From assembly GCA_038859955.1 (NCBI GenBank), contig JAWCEH010000004.1, forward strand, positions 11,196 through 35,195: a stretch of 24,000 nt of DNA. The letters run 5' to 3'. Positions 10,757 to 20,775 of this stretch are shown in pieces (position 1 is the stretch's first letter; every line of letters starts with the position of its first letter). This stretch comes from Candidatus Bathyarchaeia archaeon. GTDB lineage: Archaea; Thermoproteota; Bathyarchaeia; Bathyarchaeales; DTEX01. A model generated the notes under the pieces. It saw nothing but the letters and a program-made list of their open reading frames with translations. It was not told the DNA's origin and searched no databases. The position numbers and the translations under genes are program-made.

Positions 10757-11686
10757 TTAGAAATAGGATTTTTCAAGGACGGTTCTTGCAAGCCTAACTT
10801 TATCCTCCAGTGTCTTCATTATCGTATTAGTCAAAAGAACCTTAATTCCAAGATCCCTCTCTATTCTATCCTTTTCTTCTTCATCCACTTGATCTAACAC
10901 GAAAAGATTCAGAAAGTCTTTATATAAATATGCCACCGAGTATGCTGAGACCTCTAATCCGAGGCCCCTCATTAATTTATCAGCTGGTCCTTTTAATGGG
11001 GCTCCAGAGACAATTGGGCTTATGGCTACTTTACGCGCTTCGCTTTTTCTCATTGATTCTCTTACACCTTTAATAGATAGTATTGTACCTATGCTTACAA
11101 TCGGATTGCTTGGGCAGATAATTATTAAATTACTGTTGAGTATTGCATCGATAACCCCTTCAGCTGGACGAGCGTTTTCAACACTCATATATTTCACACC
11201 TAAAACTCTGTCTTTTGCTCCCCTCTTGACTAAATACTCTTGGAAATGCATTAAACCAGCGTCAGTCTCAATCCAAGTCTCAACTCGGTCATCAGTCATT
11301 GGGATTATATTAACTCTTAAGCCCAGACCTCGGCATATTTCCTTTGTCGCCTGAGAAAGTGTCAGTCCCCTCCTCAAGAGAACTGTTCTGTGAATATGTG
11401 TTGCAAGATCTCTGTCGCCTATATTAAACCATGTATCGTATCCATACTTTTGGAGCATCTCCAGGCAATGAAATGTATCATCCTTTATTCCCCAACCTTT
11501 TTCTTCATCAACTATGCCCGCAAGAGTATATGCGACTATATCAAGATCTGGCGAAATATGCAACCCAAAAAGTTCTATGTCATCTCCAGTATTCACGATA
11601 ATTGTTAACTCTTCTTCCGGAATAACTCTTATGAGACCGGAAAGAAATTTTGCAGCGCCAACACCACCAGCTAAAGCCGTTATCAT
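10757..11686 (-). CDS. cofD: 2-phospho-L-lactate (or EPPG) transferase CofD, F420 biosynthesis
   Basis: Motifs: MITALAGGVGAAKFLSGL, VNTGDDIELFGLHISPDLD, EKGWG and ICPSNPIVSIGTILS. The start was re-called to ATG 11686, which forms an ATGA overlap with the upstream nitroreductase stop. The track's TTG at 11701 is probably an over-extension. Confidence 0.85.
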   Translation of the reverse strand: MITALAGGVGAAKFLSGLIRVIPEEELTIIVNTGDDIELFGLHISPDLDIVAYTLAGIVDEEKGWGIKDDTFHCLEMLQKYGYDTWFNIGDRDLATHIHRTVLLRRGLTLSQATKEICRGLGLRVNIIPMTDDRVETWIETDAGLMHFQEYLVKRGAKDRVLGVKYMSVENARPAEGVIDAILNSNLIIICPSNPIVSIGTILSIKGVRESMRKSEARKVAISPIVSGAPLKGPADKLMRGLGLEVSAYSVAYLYKDFLNLFVLDQVDEEEKDRIERDLGIKVLLTNTIMKTLEDKVRLARTVLEKSYF

Positions 11687-12306
11687 AAGCTCACGCCCCA
11701 ATAATTCTTAAACGCTATCTCCTTAATTTCCTTTCTAGGCGGGGGCTCCGGACTCTCGGCCGGATAGCCAATTGCTATTAAAGCTTGGGGTTCGACGTCG
11801 CGCGGCATCTTTAAAACTCTTCTAACAGTCTTCTGACAGAATAGAGGTGCGCAGAACCAGCATGCGCCTAGTCCTTCAGCATAAGCAGCTAAGAGAATGT
11901 TCTGGATTGCGGCAGCTAAACTCTGCGTTGCCATTAAATGTTCGAATTTTTGTCTCCTCCTATCAGGATATTTGTGCATCTCCTTCATAGTCAGAGCGGT
12001 AACCACTAAAACTGGTGTCTCGGTAAAGCGTTTAATCGATTCACTGATCAGCTTTTTTGATTCTTCTTGAGGAACACCGTCTCTTTCAAGATCTTTAGCC
12101 CATTCTGAGGCCATAGCTTCAGCTAGCTTCTTCTTTACATCGGAATCGGTTATTACGACAAAACGCCAGGGTTGAGAGTTATGGGCGGATGGAGCCCATC
12201 TAGCAGCCTCAATCACCCTAAAAATAAGTTCTCCCGGGATACTCTCTGGCCGATAACGTCTTATACTTCTTCTGCCCTTAATAACATATTCTATAGGTTT
12301 TTCCAT
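11683..12306 (-). CDS. Nitroreductase-fold flavoprotein, resembling the FbiB C-terminal domain
   Basis: The motif KGRRSIRRYRPESIPGELIFRVIEAARWAPSAHNSQPWRFVVI is a classic nitroreductase N-terminal signature. The start was re-called to ATG 12306, which follows GGTGAG by 6 nt. Confidence 0.8.
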   Translation of the reverse strand: MEKPIEYVIKGRRSIRRYRPESIPGELIFRVIEAARWAPSAHNSQPWRFVVITDSDVKKKLAEAMASEWAKDLERDGVPQEESKKLISESIKRFTETPVLVVTALTMKEMHKYPDRRRQKFEHLMATQSLAAAIQNILLAAYAEGLGACWFCAPLFCQKTVRRVLKMPRDVEPQALIAIGYPAESPEPPPRKEIKEIAFKNYWGVSL

Positions 12307-13095: not shown

Positions 13096-13536
13096 TTACT
13101 CAATTTTTTGTTCTTCAATCGAAATATCAAATAATTCATTAATGCTCTTATTTATTGTTTCAAAAGCTTTCTGCTCAGTATCCTCTTTAGTAGACATTTC
13201 TTTAAGGCTTTTGAGAGCATCGTCCTTAAGTTTCATTTTGAGTAATTTATTATCCTTAATAAATATAATTAAGATTGATTCTCCTTCCCTAACCGTGATG
13301 TTTCCTTTTCCCATAGTGCATCCTGTAGCGACTTGAATCCCATCGACGAGACAAGAATATGGCGGACTAGGTCTAGTTTCAACGATCGCTTTTGTCCTAA
13401 AGTAATCTTTTCCTAGAACTCTATTAGCAAATAATCCGGCCTTTAAGCCCAATATAAGGAATGGGCCGAGATGACCATGGAATTTCACAGCTTCATTTAA
13501 CAGCGCACTTGTAATTTCGTCATACATGCCATTCAA
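13096..13536 (-). CDS. FmdE-domain protein (formylmethanofuran dehydrogenase subunit E family)
   Basis: Motifs: AVKFHGHLGPFLILGLKAG and CLVDGIQVATGCTMGKGNI. A GGAGAGG Shine-Dalgarno lies upstream of the ATG. Confidence 0.75.
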   Translation of the reverse strand: MNGMYDEITSALLNEAVKFHGHLGPFLILGLKAGLFANRVLGKDYFRTKAIVETRPSPPYSCLVDGIQVATGCTMGKGNITVREGESILIIFIKDNKLLKMKLKDDALKSLKEMSTKEDTEQKAFETINKSINELFDISIEEQKIE

Positions 13537-15347: not shown

Positions 15348-15971
15348 CTACTGAAAAACACTTGGCTTTATATTTAAATAAACTAAAGGACCCCTCTCCT
15401 TCGGTAGCCGTGCTATTCTAGCGCTAATAGCGTTATACATGCTTAATGGATCTAGCACTATCGGTTTCGTGTCTTTACTGGTCTTTTGAATGCGCTTAGC
15501 TATCTCCTCGACTATTAAGTTTTCAGCTATGAACTCAATCATGCATACCTCGTTTTGATTCACAAGTTTTCTAACGGCTATGCTCTTTAATTCAGATTTG
15601 TAATCCATGTCTTGATATATTCTCCTTGCTCTCCTAATATTTTCTACATAATCTGGTGGCAACTCAAATTTTGTTGATAAAACCCTCACTCGCTCCCGCC
15701 ACTTCTTAAGCCACATGCCGGCCCAAAAGTTTATCGAAGTCTTAAGATCCGCTGGTTTACTCTTAAGATACTCCTCAAGTTTTCTATAAACAATTCGACT
15801 ATCATCTGTGTCTAATTTAACCTTTAGCCAGGTCTCCAGATCCTTTGAAGCGTATACAACCATTTGGTAATCTAGGGTGTATGGCTTAAATTGCGGGATA
15901 TAACTCTCAAACTCCTTGATTAACAGCGAGAGAAATCTATTGCGAAAGTTTATAGCGCTCATTGAACGCAC
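15348..15971 (-). CDS. Hypothetical protein, predicted mostly helical, no motif recognised
   Basis: A 207-codon ORF in the same orientation as the ATPase-primase pair, 77 nt upstream of it. The start is GTG 15971 or ATG 15962. A TTTTAAATT TATA-like box lies about 40-50 nt upstream. Confidence 0.6.
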   Translation of the reverse strand: MRSMSAINFRNRFLSLLIKEFESYIPQFKPYTLDYQMVVYASKDLETWLKVKLDTDDSRIVYRKLEEYLKSKPADLKTSINFWAGMWLKKWRERVRVLSTKFELPPDYVENIRRARRIYQDMDYKSELKSIAVRKLVNQNEVCMIEFIAENLIVEEIAKRIQKTSKDTKPIVLDPLSMYNAISARIARLPKERGPLVYLNIKPSVFQ

Positions 15972-16033: not shown

Positions 16034-16960
16034 TCACATTTCATCTTTAAAGTTACAAATATCGCGTGGCAAATCTGATAATCTTGGAAGCCCGTCCCTC
16101 GCCCCCATTCTTGTTAGGCACCTTGAAGCAACAAAGTTTCCTAAAAGACCGCACTCTTTGAGGTTTTTTCCTTTAAGAAGCCCATAAATAAAGCCGGCGC
16201 AGAAAGCATCGCCAGCACCAGTTGTATCAACAACTTCAACTTTAAATGGCTCAATTAAATGGCTTTCGCAGCCATCTGTGACATAACAACCCCTCTCCCC
16301 CAACTTAACTGCCACAATATTTGCTCCTTCTTCGAGTAAGGTTTCCGCGCCCTCACGGTAATCTTTACCTGTTAAAAGGCGTACCTCACCTTCACTTGGA
16401 AGAACGGCATAGCATCTTTTTATAATAGGTTTAAGGGCATCTAGACCCTTATGCGCATAAATAACCCCTGGGTCAAGCGTTATTTTAACCTCTGAAATTT
16501 TCTCCACAATTTTCTTTTGAGCTTCAAAGGGCACCTCGCCAGCGAAGGATGTTAGATGTAAGATTTTTGCATCTCTTACATATTCAAGATTAATTTCATC
16601 GTATCTCAATGTATCGTTGACGCCGGGATCCAAGTATAATGCTCTTCTCCCTTTTTGGTCAACGAAGCCTATAACTGATCCACTTCTGCCAGTTTTAGAG
16701 ATAATTATACCATTTGTGTCAACCCCTTCATCTATGAAGGATTTTAGGAGGAATTCGCCCTCTCTATCCTCCGCAATCTTACCAATGTAGCCTACCTTTA
16801 CGCCGAGCCGTACTAAACCCACGGCTGTATTTGCAGCTGAGCCACCTGGGGTTTCCTTAAAATCCAGTATTACACTCTCTTCATCGGCTCCAGCTAACCT
16901 ATCAACTTTATAAAGTTTATCGACATTTAATGCTCCAAAACAGACTACTTCAAGTTTCAT
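16034..16960 (-). CDS. PfkB-family carbohydrate/nucleoside kinase
   Basis: PfkB signature 1 is [16 protein letters not shown] and signature 2 is [16 protein letters not shown]. Its ATG overlaps the Ftr TGA (ATGA). Confidence 0.85.
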
Positions 16961-17862
16961 GATAATATCTCTCTCAGGTAGATTATATATTTGCCAAGTT
17001 TCCCACCATAGTTTCCAGCTGAAATTCTAACAACCCCCTTGACGGATGAGGCAGCTTTGATGCCAACTTTTATTGCTTCTTTAACAGAATCTAAGGTCAG
17101 TCCATTAATCACTATCTCTGGTATATAGCGAACTCCCTCTGGAACTTTCGATTCCATACCGAGTTTACTTTTAAGTGAAGGGCAATAGGGATGGTTTGTT
17201 GTTGGACCTATTTGTGGGAACTTTGTCTCAGGTTTTGAGCCCGCTGAGCATATATCAAATGGGGTGACTACACCCTCAACGTGGCTTATGGCTTTTAGAA
17301 CCTTTCTTCCAGCCTCTAAAACAACCCTCTTTGTTCGGCACATATACCAGAAGTTTCCGCCCATAACCCCACGGCCATAACCTATGAAGCGCTCAATTTT
17401 AAAGTCGGGGACCATTATTGGCACAATTATCATTTCACGCCCATATTGTTTCTCGATCCACTCGTATCCGTCACCACAGTGTCCTATCAACTCTAGAGTA
17501 TCTATTTTACCTATCGGGCTTGGACAAGCATCGAAAACTGCTGTAAATGGCTTAACAAGTATATCTTGCCTAACTCTGTAAGAAAATTCTCTATAAAACT
17601 TTTTAATGACTTCTTCGATAGGTTTTCTCTCGTCTACTCCGCTCCAGAACTGCAGTATTACACCTAAGCGTCCATCTGGTGTCTCATTTTTCGGAACCCA
17701 GCGTTCAATCCCACCTTCAATCCGACCTATAACTGTTGAAGGTGTTGCGGTTGAGTCTTCAGCAGCTCTCATGAGAATGCCTTTATCGTTTGCAGTGACA
17801 AGGACTCTAAAGTATAATCCTTCAAAGGCTTCCACATAAGTATCTTCAATAAACACATTCAT
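16957..17862 (-). CDS. ftr: Formylmethanofuran:tetrahydromethanopterin formyltransferase family (Ftr or an Ftr paralogue)
   Basis: It is collinear with Ftr throughout: [43 protein letters not shown] and [24 protein letters not shown] Shine-Dalgarno lies 4 nt upstream of the ATG. Confidence 0.85.
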
Positions 17863-17933
17863 TTAAATCACCATTTATATCAGAAAAAGAGGGTTTTAAG
17901 GTGTGATTTTAGGATTATCTGTCGATTAAGTGG

Positions 17934-18002
17934 CTATTTCTTAGGCTCTTCAGTCTTCTTTTCCTCAGTCTTCTTCTTTTTCTTTCCTCCGCAGCAGGAC
18001 AT
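17934..18002 (-). CDS. Candidate 22-aa micro-protein MSCCGGKKKKKTEEKKTEEPKK
   Basis: The ORF runs from ATG 18002-18000 to TAG 17936-17934. GGTGAG lies 5 nt upstream, the same Shine-Dalgarno and spacing seen at neighbouring genes. It sits in the only sizeable gap of the operon. It is too short for the ORF track and was translated by hand. Confidence 0.35.
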   Translation of the reverse strand: MSCCGGKKKKKTEEKKTEEPKK

Positions 18003-18069
18003 AATTACTCACCAAATCGATTGTTCTCAAAATTTCCTTTTATGATTTTCTATTATGCTATTTCGTTCA

Positions 18070-19149
18070 TTAGCCTAGAGCCCCTATCGCTTCTCCCCTA
18101 ATGGTTTTTCTGAAGGCTGTGCTCTCATGTATTAGCCGATCAATGTTCTGTGGGGTTATTCTTTCTACCCATGGAGTTTTCTCTGGATGCAAGCTTTTTA
18201 TGCGTTCAATTAAAAATGGACTGCAGTAATCTTCTAGCATAGATACGCTCCAGTTTTCCGCTAGATTGAGTACGTGTTCTTTGCCAAACCTCTTGAATTG
18301 TTCAGCTAATACAGCAAGTACAATTACATGATGCGATAGCACAGCGATTTCGGCTTCCCTAATAGCATATTGGTTCCCGTTGAATGAAACCGTTAAGCCT
18401 CCGCTTTTTCTAACAAGTCTAAAAGGTTCAACATCTGTTATACTATCACCTACATAAATGATTGATGAGAGTTCCCCGCCTAAAATAGTAGCAATATCCC
18501 TAACTGCCCTAGCCTTTTCATACCCACCAACCGGGTTAATATCTCTTAATGCTGCTCCTATTTTCATTTTCATAATTTCATCCCAAAAGATTTCGTCAAG
18601 ACGTTTTATTGTCCTCCGGGTTTCTGGCGGTAGATCACCTAGTGACTTTGCACCTTGAGGGATTTCTATCATAGGCATCTCGATTATCTCTTTTCTTAGA
18701 ACCTTTAGTCGCTCAATTTCCTCCTTTGGCACAATATACTTATCTATATCAATTTTAGTACAGTAAACGTTCTCTTTTGGGAAATCTATAGCATCACACA
18801 GGGCATTTATATAGGGCTCATAACTTGTGCTAACTATGAACGAGGGCATTATCGATCTAATATAGTGCAGTGCTTCACCGGCTCCGGGAACCACCAGTAG
18901 GGTTTCCGATGAGAAGCGCCTCATCATCTCGTTAGTTGCGCCATAAGCCTTCAGGAATGGCGCTATAAGCTTGAGGGTATCTCCAGCTTTATATCCTGGT
19001 CTCTTAACTATGTCAGCTAAAATATCATCATATCTGCTTATTTGAGTGAAAAACTTATCACCGTTCGGAATAAGCCAACAGGAGAGTTCGAATGCGTTAT
19101 CATTTTTTGAAATAGGTCCCTCGCAGTCAGTTACAAAAATTTTCATCAT
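18070..19149 (-). CDS. HAD-superfamily-like protein with a DCEGP motif (I recall this family being annotated EhaR)
   Basis: The HAD motif I variant is IFVTDCEGP and motif IV is YVGDSITDVEP, with a large cap region between them. Its ATG overlaps the PurD-like TGA (ATGA). Confidence 0.6.
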   Translation of the reverse strand: MMKIFVTDCEGPISKNDNAFELSCWLIPNGDKFFTQISRYDDILADIVKRPGYKAGDTLKLIAPFLKAYGATNEMMRRFSSETLLVVPGAGEALHYIRSIMPSFIVSTSYEPYINALCDAIDFPKENVYCTKIDIDKYIVPKEEIERLKVLRKEIIEMPMIEIPQGAKSLGDLPPETRRTIKRLDEIFWDEIMKMKIGAALRDINPVGGYEKARAVRDIATILGGELSSIIYVGDSITDVEPFRLVRKSGGLTVSFNGNQYAIREAEIAVLSHHVIVLAVLAEQFKRFGKEHVLNLAENWSVSMLEDYCSPFLIERIKSLHPEKTPWVERITPQNIDRLIHESTAFRKTIRGEAIGALG

Positions 19150-20561
19150 AACTGTTTCCTCAAGAGTTCCATATGCATTATGCTTCGCTCAATATGCTCC
19201 TTTGAGGCTATATCTGTCCTATACCAAAGAGCTCCTCCCTTAATGGCCTTTATTCCCTCCATGGCTATTTCACGTGCGCTTTGAATGTCATCGCCAATGC
19301 CAACGGTACATACTGCTCTAGAAGACAGCGCGTATGTTTTCCCATTCTCACGAATCTCCATTGAACCTGGATAAACTCTAATATTATCACCATGTTTGGT
19401 TGATAGCTTTTCAGCCGACTCTAGGATAACTGGCGTGCCTATCTCGCTCTTATTAACTAGGTGTGGAAAAGCGTCTATATAGCCGCCATATTTGGGGGGA
19501 ACCTTATAAATTACAACAGCAGCCTTCTCATCAATATTTACACGTGTTAGAGTCCCCTCAATCATTCTAAAGCATATCTCAACAAAATCATCTTTTAAAA
19601 GTGATAGGATTGGTATTATCTCCGGGTCGCCTGGCCTACTATTATTTTCCAGAATCATTGGCCCCTTACTCGTGTGTATAAATGCTTCGTAAAACGGTAT
19701 CCCCCGAAGACTTGGATTCGAGCTTCCACCCCTAAGCTTCTCAAATATTTTCTCAACAATAATCCTCTCTTTCTCCCAATCCTCAGTTCTCATGAATGGC
19801 AAAACATATCCCCTATCTTTATATGTGCCCATGCCGCCAGTGTTTGGTCCTCTGTCACCATCGAAAGCTCTTTTATAGTCCCTCGTTTCCGGCAATGGAA
19901 CGATATGTTTGCCATCGCAAAAGGCCTGAAAACTTGATTCCTCACCCTCAATTTTCTCCTCAACTATAACTGGCCCAAACTTAAAGTTGGCTAAGAAGTG
20001 CTCTAAAATTTCCTCGCGAGTATTAAAGTGATCTCCCCAAACTCCAACGCCCTTACCGGCAGCAGGAGCATCTGGTTTAACAGCCACCTTATTCTCGAGT
20101 TCATCTAACCATTTAAACAAGTCCCTTTTGACATCATCTAGATCCCTATAGTCTTTAGGGTCAAAGACCTTAAACCTCGGATTTACCTCCGGGGCAACTT
20201 CCTGAAAGAGTGTCCTCTGTGCAACCTTGCTCTTTTCAAGAGCATAATCCTTAGTTGGGCAGATTATTGGAATGTGAAGTTTACTCTCAATTAAATCCCT
20301 TACGCCTTCGATTATTGGCTTTTCTGGGCCAACTATTCCGAAGTCAATTTTATCCTTATGCTTTTCAGTAAAACTGTATATGGCATTAACATTGAGATCC
20401 GGGATTACAACATGCTCTTTAGCCCTATTAACATTAAATGGATTTCTCTGCTTATCAGCAATATAGAGCTCAACAGTGTACTCTTGGCTTCTCATGAAAG
20501 CATCAACCATAGCAGCCTCCCTAGAACCATAGGAAATGACGAGAATGCCAACGCGCTCCAT
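19146..20561 (-). CDS. purD: Phosphoribosylamine-glycine ligase (PurD)-family ATP-grasp enzyme
   Basis: Motifs: GPEKPIIEGVRD, VKPDAPAAGKGVGV and the GARS signature-like SRPGDPEII. The start was re-called to ATG 20561 (MERVGILV), which follows GGTGAT by 4 nt. The track's TTG at 20579 is probably an over-extension. Confidence 0.8.
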   Translation of the reverse strand: MERVGILVISYGSREAAMVDAFMRSQEYTVELYIADKQRNPFNVNRAKEHVVIPDLNVNAIYSFTEKHKDKIDFGIVGPEKPIIEGVRDLIESKLHIPIICPTKDYALEKSKVAQRTLFQEVAPEVNPRFKVFDPKDYRDLDDVKRDLFKWLDELENKVAVKPDAPAAGKGVGVWGDHFNTREEILEHFLANFKFGPVIVEEKIEGEESSFQAFCDGKHIVPLPETRDYKRAFDGDRGPNTGGMGTYKDRGYVLPFMRTEDWEKERIIVEKIFEKLRGGSSNPSLRGIPFYEAFIHTSKGPMILENNSRPGDPEIIPILSLLKDDFVEICFRMIEGTLTRVNIDEKAAVVIYKVPPKYGGYIDAFPHLVNKSEIGTPVILESAEKLSTKHGDNIRVYPGSMEIRENGKTYALSSRAVCTVGIGDDIQSAREIAMEGIKAIKGGALWYRTDIASKEHIERSIMHMELLRKQL

Positions 20562-20775
20562 CAGTATCACCACTTGCAATCTATTAGATTTAGTAATTCA
20601 TCTACGTAAAAGTTTTATGAGTCCGTTACAATCTCCCTGAAATTAAAGATAGGGGTTCTTTCCTCCCTTATCACAACTGAGCTTCGACTAGATCAGTTAT
20701 TACCTTGGAAGATAGCAAGTCTTTTAAGGATACCATGTATTAAAGAAGGAATTGGTTAAAGAGGAAAGATGCCTT

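Follow-up and report, generated by a model that had tools for sequence, protein, structure and literature searches.

An EhaR–Ftr2–PfkB gene module beside purD is a candidate for the GAR formylation step of purine synthesis in Bathyarchaeia

What does a ligase of purine synthesis do in one operon with three proteins whose methanogen counterparts close the operon of a hydrogenase? The question is raised by a stretch of 24,000 nucleotides (the window; G000:C4:11196-35195) from a metagenome-assembled genome of the Bathyarchaeia, 86% complete with 7% contamination. Four co-directional and partly overlapping genes lie on its minus strand, with a 22-codon open reading frame (ORF) within their sole gap (Table 1). 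They encode PurD, which makes glycinamide ribonucleotide (GAR), an EhaR-type HAD-fold protein, a divergent paralogue of the formyltransferase Ftr (Ftr2) and a PfkB-family kinase. The first-pass annotation of this DNA had recognized these four families, on which Pfam and NCBIfam agree, and had stated that the last three also end the eha operon of methanogens. The literature bears this out: EhaS and EhaT of Methanothermobacter are annotated as a formyltransferase and a ribokinase and are co-transcribed with ehaA-R (PMC3087415), and JGI names close relatives of the HAD protein 'energy-converting hydrogenase A subunit R'. As it had also stated, the trio stands here without eha hydrogenase genes, no hydrogenase family being found among the 19 window ORFs scanned against Pfam. 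The claimed lack of any one-carbon (C1) context holds less well, since an FmdE-family gene and cofD lie in the same window. Among the three pathways it had suggested, for a cofactor, a formylated ribosyl-amine or a purine branch, the last comes closest to what we propose. We think it probable that the trio supplies the third step of purine synthesis, the formylation of GAR to formyl-GAR (FGAR), with a formyl donor matched to the C1 carrier of the cell.

The ligase is the housekeeping PurD of this archaeon and not a recruited paralogue. It is the only PurD-type gene of the genome, its residues 12-460 align over the full length with the Aquifex enzyme (2YW2), the GPNTGGMG and GDPE motifs are kept, and purF lies directly upstream of purD in three of five relatives that are 97-100% complete. 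This corrects the earlier idea of an extra PurD-like amide ligase drawn into a new pathway: exactly one PurD is also found in 38 of 40 genomes of the same order, where it adjoins EhaR wherever contig context allows. The window protein falls below the TIGR00877 equivalog cut-off of 288 bits, as do its counterparts in all 41 order-level genomes (199-274 bits), and this cut-off is too strict for the PurD of this lineage. Two grades of PurD can be distinguished in the class: most EhaR-negative lineages score above the cut-off, at 300-505 bits, while EhaR-positive ones score 175-281 bits. Two cases depart from this pattern, namely G066, whose ehaR adjoins a purD of the high-scoring type, and family f19, which has the low-scoring type but no EhaR. 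The grades may reflect phylogeny or co-adaptation. In the genome of the window, no purF was found but only a GlmS-like match, probably owing to an assembly gap.

The formyltransferase, judged by its sequence, is a second, deeply divergent and non-canonical copy of Ftr. Both domains of the two-lobe protein are present, and the residue equivalent to the catalytic Glu245 is retained within PEIVINGL. The subfamily-level model NF002554 is passed (337 bits, cut-off 297), whereas the Ftr equivalog TIGR03119 is not (223 bits against 292.6). A canonical copy, Ftr1, lies on another contig of the same genome and scores 313-345 bits against solved Ftr structures, where Ftr2 reaches 169-189. The two are about 40% identical, against 50-87% among operon-linked Ftr2 copies from the whole class. 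A quick tree by maximum likelihood (IQ-TREE) separates 7 Ftr1 from 96 operon-linked Ftr2 sequences by a branch with SH-aLRT support of 100, Ftr2 having a long branch of its own; five entries that bear an Ftr1 label within the Ftr2 clade are duplicates of Ftr2 genes. The suspicion that a second ftr might exist and that the operon copy might not be the canonical one was thus well founded.

The association of these genes is not particular to the window. We compared 80 named Bathyarchaeia loci retrieved with an 11-sequence EhaR alignment, whose matches are almost only from this class. The order purD-ehaR-ftr2-pfkB occurs in about 60 of the 80, down to 51% EhaR identity, while flanking genes are common only to close kin. 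Where ftr2 and pfkB do not adjoin purD-ehaR, they stay paired elsewhere in the genome. As for the outcomes that the first-pass annotation had named as adverse to its reading, a single housekeeping purD is indeed what we found, while Ftr is neither canonical nor the only copy and the gene order is conserved in related genomes. Moreover, the surroundings are those of purine synthesis. In the closed genome G040, purM, purL and purQ are followed by the convergent block pfkB<-ftr2<-ehaR<-purD<-purF. The series purF-purD-ehaR-ftr2 is also found in G033, G025 and G066; pfkB comes next in two of them, G033 and G066, whereas G025 has it at a distance of about 3 kb. Purine steps 1, 2, 4 and 5 are thus encoded around the trio and step 3 alone is left unassigned. 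The five relatives of 97-100% completeness encode PurF, PurL, PurC and PurP, and searches of these genomes gave no match to PF00551 (the PurN/Fmt fold) and no PurT-grade match.

Several features of these loci may be recorded here. The five relatives (G002, G023, G025, G033 and G040) gave no match to PurO (PF07826), PurH2/MGS not having been searched, and the inosine monophosphate (IMP) cyclohydrolase step may also be without a gene in them. PurP genes are in tandem in G002, G023, G025 and G040, and a single PurP ORF is present in G033. G023, which is 98% complete and of the same family, lacks purD, ehaR and ftr2 altogether and keeps purF, purL, purC and purP; either an assembly gap spans the block or the block was lost as a unit. 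An extra gene separates ehaR from ftr2 in some Bathyarchaeia (about 1 kb in L065, L066 and L095, about 1.9 kb in L100), the insert of L100 resembling a metallo-beta-lactamase/RNase J-type protein to judge from its HxHxDH motif.

If the trio formylates GAR, it should be found where the known GAR formyltransferases are not, and this is what the distribution displays. Our sample comprised 101 Bathyarchaeia genomes, all at least 90% complete except that of the window; 91 have PurD and 45 have EhaR. Counted at 50% identity or more, Ftr2 occurs in 40 genomes, every one of which also has EhaR. Neither PurT nor PurN above cut-off occurs in any of the 45 EhaR-positive genomes. On the other side, a PurT-like gene occurs in nine genomes, all EhaR-negative, and adjoins purD in four of them, although no Bathyarchaeial PurT-like gene reaches the PurT cut-off of 502 bits. 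PurN above cut-off is present in 11 genomes, again all EhaR-negative, and is purD-adjacent in at least nine. A PurN-like gene scoring 86-102 bits is present in about 24 more EhaR-negative genomes; that of G075 adjoins purD and has the canonical phosphate loop SGSGTN. Altogether, about 44 of the roughly 47 EhaR-negative genomes with PurD carry PurT, PurN or a PurN-like gene, and in at least 14 EhaR-negative genomes PurT or PurN is next to purD. Only five EhaR-positive genomes are without Ftr2: four have a PurN-like gene beside EhaR, and in G029 the contig ends after ehaR. Almost all genomes with PurD thus have one, and only one, of PurN, PurT, PurN-like protein or EhaR module, and three of these solutions coexist within a single family, f15.

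The genomes with a PurN-like gene beside EhaR reveal that the module has a second form. Both G072 and G067 show the series purF-purD-PurN-like-ehaR-pfkB-folD, and G072 also has an AICARFT gene next to it. Asn, His and Asp of the catalytic triad are conserved in the PurN-like protein, and STGRD replaces the loop SGxGSN with which PurN holds the phosphate of GAR. Related genes (41-50% identical) lie between pfkB and ehaR in one Methanomassiliicoccales genome and one Thermodesulfobacteriota bin, and canonical PurN was not found in either. The partnership is sometimes even tighter: among metagenome proteins, P0179 is a fusion of a PurN-like domain with a C-terminal EhaR, and in P0195 and P0214 EhaR is fused to an ATP-grasp region of about 590 residues whose PurT/PurK-like assignment is weak. 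Which formyltransferase is present goes with the C1 regime: the formate-dependent PurP accompanies the Ftr2 form, whereas genomes with the PurN-like form are without PurP and have folate enzymes. Since a constant pair of EhaR and PfkB takes formyltransferases of different folds, at the position of step 3, the module is likely to be a GAR-formylating system. Gene position and complementary distribution together suggest that the reaction is the conversion of GAR to FGAR.

The two constant partners are less easily read. For the HAD protein, a weak PF12710 match and otherwise weak generic HAD matches are all that Pfam and NCBIfam offer. The family is nevertheless large, with 5,432 matches at E <= 1e-3 among the candidates scored in a collection of 5.8 billion proteins and 638 cluster representatives at the same threshold in a 50%-identity library. 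Its profile matches AF1437 of Archaeoglobus fulgidus (PDB 1Y8A) at 238 bits. An AlphaFold2 model of the window protein (pLDDT 96) superimposes on this structure with TM-scores of 0.81/0.93, SerB-type HAD-IB structures coming next. The invariant columns read TDCEGP...GDSITD...SFNGN and HAD motifs I-IV are kept. EhaR is thus a SerB/MtnX-like HAD-IB protein whose motif I, D-C-E, is unusual and whose C-terminal tail is conserved and rich in Arg. The kinase has ribokinase as its best NCBIfam match (TIGR02152, 162 bits, cut-off 299.65), scores about 100 bits against solved fructokinase and ribokinase structures, and keeps the N-x-D sugar motif and the catalytic GAGD within DTTGAGDAF. Literature searches for EhaR, EhaS, EhaT and AF1437 found no assigned function.

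How could such a module work? Housekeeping PurD and the three-gene module would together carry the pathway through step 3 in cells without PurN or PurT. Ftr2 would be the formyl-transferring component, and its donor would most likely be formylmethanofuran or N5-formyl-tetrahydromethanopterin (N5-formyl-H4MPT), both made via the canonical Ftr1 pathway. The formyltransferase would have the HAD protein and the kinase as obligatory partners, which hints at a chemistry differing from that of PurN and PurT. Our leading guess is that the acceptor passes through a cycle of phosphorylation and dephosphorylation on its ribose, being formylated, for instance, as the riboside and re-phosphorylated afterwards; alternatively, the pair could supply ribose phosphate. 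The cycle can be put more explicitly as a three-enzyme route, common to these archaea and to bacteria with the PurN-like form. The HAD protein would dephosphorylate an intermediate, or kinase and phosphatase would tag it; the altered acceptor would be formylated by Ftr2 with formyl-methanofuran, or by the special PurN-like enzyme with 10-formyl-tetrahydrofolate; PfkB would then spend one ATP to restore the 5'-phosphate. We regard this detailed route as speculative and rather doubtful as it stands. Catalytic residues are kept throughout, namely the Glu245 equivalent of Ftr2, the triad of the PurN-like protein, motifs I-IV of EhaR and GAGD of PfkB. The idea that ATP cycling offsets a low-energy formyl donor is weakened by the folate-type variant, which has folD yet keeps EhaR and PfkB.

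Assignment of the whole trio to GAR formylation meets some difficulties. It gives no reason for a formyltransferase to need kinase and phosphatase-like partners, canonical PurN working alone, and the folate-type variant retains them in spite of a high-energy donor, as indicated by folD in its operon. In methanogens the trio lies in the eha hydrogenase operon and not in a purine cluster. The complementarity is strongly clustered by family, so that the counts are not independent events and the underlying events would be few. In EhaR-negative genomes, many of the PurN-like and PurT-like calls are below curated cut-offs, and adjacency speaks for their function in only some genomes. These points leave room for a division of labour in which only Ftr2 acts in step 3, the other two being co-regulated in the operon for ribose-phosphate supply: the kinase would produce ribose-5-phosphate for phosphoribosyl pyrophosphate, and the HAD protein would be a pentose-phosphate phosphatase or mutase. 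Among models, those of ribokinase, fructokinase and ribose-1-phosphate kinase are indeed the nearest to PfkB, with N-x-D and GAGD kept, the SerB/MtnX-like HAD-IB fold of EhaR is typical of phosphatases of small phosphoesters, and ftr2-pfkB and purD-ehaR are separated in some genomes. A general ribose supply, however, would be expected alongside any GAR formyltransferase. EhaR occurs only with a module-type enzyme (45 of 45 cases explained) and never with canonical PurN or PurT, lineages having PurN or PurT manage without the EhaR-PfkB pair, and EhaR is fused directly to formyltransferase-type domains. We therefore find this division of labour unlikely.

To a similar degree, it seems improbable to us that, along the lines of the first-pass annotation, the product of the trio (alone or joined by the ligase) is another formylated ribosyl compound, for example a cofactor or a precursor, while some other enzyme such as a PurP paralogue formylates GAR. 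Co-transcription of the Methanothermobacter trio with the Eha hydrogenase and not with purine genes (PMC3087415) would fit such a product, as would the two PurP-like genes in tandem in these genomes. Yet the block follows purF-purD and adjoins purL, purQ and purM in several families, folD follows the folate-type variant with AICARFT next door in G072, and the distribution is complementary to that of PurN and PurT. Two PurP copies are found in PurT-bearing genomes as well (G051, G059, G092 and G114), so the second PurP is no specific substitute; for the same reason we rejected the proposal that it performs step 3. A further candidate, in which EhaR or PfkB replaces IMP cyclohydrolase (PurO being absent from five of five genomes), was set aside because Methanothermobacter carries both PurO and the trio. 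Finally, Ftr2 might be a mere second formylmethanofuran:H4MPT isoenzyme for the Wood-Ljungdahl pathway, its adjacency to purD being without functional meaning. Its NF002554 score and its catalytic Glu are what such redundancy predicts. It is nonetheless very hard to reconcile with the distance of Ftr2 from Ftr1 in identity and in the tree, the TIGR03119 score, a purD-ehaR synteny that is kept across families while the flanks change, and the presence of a PurN-like enzyme in the same slot, and we consider it highly improbable.

Regarding the layout of the operon itself (Table 1), the ORF coordinates agree with the first description: five minus-strand ORFs with ATGA overlaps between purD and ehaR (19146-19149) and between ftr2 and pfkB (16957-16960), and a single gap of 207 nt between ehaR and ftr2 that holds the micro-ORF. 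The ORF list starts purD at a TTG (19146-20579); the ATG at 20561, already preferred in the first reading, sits behind a GGTGAT Shine-Dalgarno sequence and is likely the true start. The earlier remark that no hairpin followed by a T-run lies inside the unit agrees with a terminator scan, which found 3 such sites against 4.3 expected in shuffled sequence and thus no excess. In the spacer, a T5 run and then ATATAAAT immediately precede the ftr2 Shine-Dalgarno sequence, so there may be an internal transcript boundary there, with ftr2-pfkB having its own promoter in the genus of this archaeon. The micro-ORF is real as an ORF and has its own Shine-Dalgarno sequence, GGTGAG, placed 5 nt before the start codon. 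It recurs, however, only at L044, a locus of the same genus, with one synonymous change in 69 nt and different flanks, while the ehaR-ftr2 spacer measures 4-20 nt in most Bathyarchaeia. It is lineage-specific and outside the conserved module. L047 may contain a relative with a TTG start (MSRCCVS..., K/R-rich).

Table 1. Features of the window discussed in the text (positions count from the first nucleotide of the window).
Feature	Position	Strand	Evidence or remark
purD, phosphoribosylamine-glycine ligase, purine step 2	19146-20561	-	GARS_N/A/C domains; TIGR00877 250 bits
EhaR-type HAD-fold protein, putative phosphatase/phosphotransferase	18070-19149	-	motif I TDCEGP, motif IV GDSITD
Spacer between ehaR and ftr2	17863-18069		only gap of the unit
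22-codon ORF (MSCCGGKKKKK...), MSCCGGKKKKKTEEKKTEEPKK	17934-18002	-	ORF in the 207-nt spacer
Ftr2, divergent Ftr paralogue, proposed GAR formyltransferase	16957-17862	-	PF01913 and PF02741
PfkB-family ribokinase-like kinase, EhaT-type	16034-16960	-	PF00294 196 bits
207-aa ORF downstream of pfkB	15348-15971		no Pfam family
FmdE-family gene	13096-13536		
cofD	10757-11701		

The 207-aa ORF is kept only in close relatives. A gap of about 60 nt with T-rich and TATA-like stretches separates it from pfkB, and it is probably a separate unit. The genome of the window amounts to 3.39 Mb in 233 contigs, against 1.1-1.7 Mb for 22 genomes of the same genus, and the bin may be composite; despite this, purD, ehaR and ftr2 are single-copy in it.

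A GAR formyltransferase has been reported missing in several archaeal groups since 2011. Archaeoglobi, Methanobacteriales and Methanopyrus kandleri possess neither PurN nor PurT (PMC3261824), and the same holds for ANME-1 (PMC9012536). An uncharacterised Ftr2 clade has been described in Archaeoglobales, M. kandleri, M. marburgensis and ANME-1 (PMC9012536). Our literature searches, including one combining 'GAR formyltransferase' with 'formylmethanofuran', found no paper that ties Ftr2 to the missing enzyme; as far as they show, these two published observations have not been joined in print. The trio now offers a testable candidate for the missing step. Were it confirmed, purine synthesis would be linked to C1 units bound to methanofuran or H4MPT, and new assignments would replace the long-standing annotations of the three genes, which name them hydrogenase subunits, a redundant Ftr or a ribokinase. 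If, in addition, the three-enzyme route held, EhaR, EhaS and EhaT of methanogens would be purine enzymes and not hydrogenase subunits, and their position in the eha operon would reflect the anaplerotic supply of formyl-methanofuran by Eha for biosynthesis.

The trio shares features with several known systems. The nearest is EhaR-EhaS-EhaT, with which the ehaA-T operon closes in Methanothermobacter, a known purine prototroph from one of the groups reported to lack the enzyme; the same three families follow there in the same order, a likeness at the level of families. The methanogen genes follow eha genes, whereas the Bathyarchaeial trio follows purD and lies inside purine clusters in relatives. 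According to work of Lie and co-workers from 2012, Eha reportedly replenishes the formyl-methanofuran withdrawn for biosynthesis, and a role in GAR formylation would therefore explain why ehaRST are placed after the eha genes. At the level of single proteins, Ftr2 has the two-lobe fold of Ftr (PDB 1FTR/2FHJ, 1M5H, 1M5S) and FhcD (6S6Y), aligns with them over the full length and keeps the Glu; it differs from canonical Ftr in its separate clade and genomic context. AF1437, a structural-genomics protein for which the literature searched records neither function nor ligand, is of the same family as the window HAD protein, at only 28% identity. For the kinase and the phosphatase-like protein, the synthesis of ADP-heptose provides an analogy. 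There, the kinase HldE and the HAD phosphatase GmhB act on different positions of one sugar phosphate, a precedent, by analogy only and in a pathway without formyl transfer, for a PfkB-kinase/HAD-phosphatase pair that is not futile.

The functional comparison is with PurN and PurT, since the module fills the purD-adjacent slot that one or the other occupies in other Bathyarchaeia. PurN transfers the formyl group of 10-formyl-tetrahydrofolate to GAR, and PurT uses formate and ATP. The fold of Ftr2 is unrelated to both, being neither PF00551 nor the ATP-grasp of PurT. In contrast to these enzymes, Ftr2 would presumably use a formyl group bound to methanofuran or H4MPT, and its module includes two further proteins.

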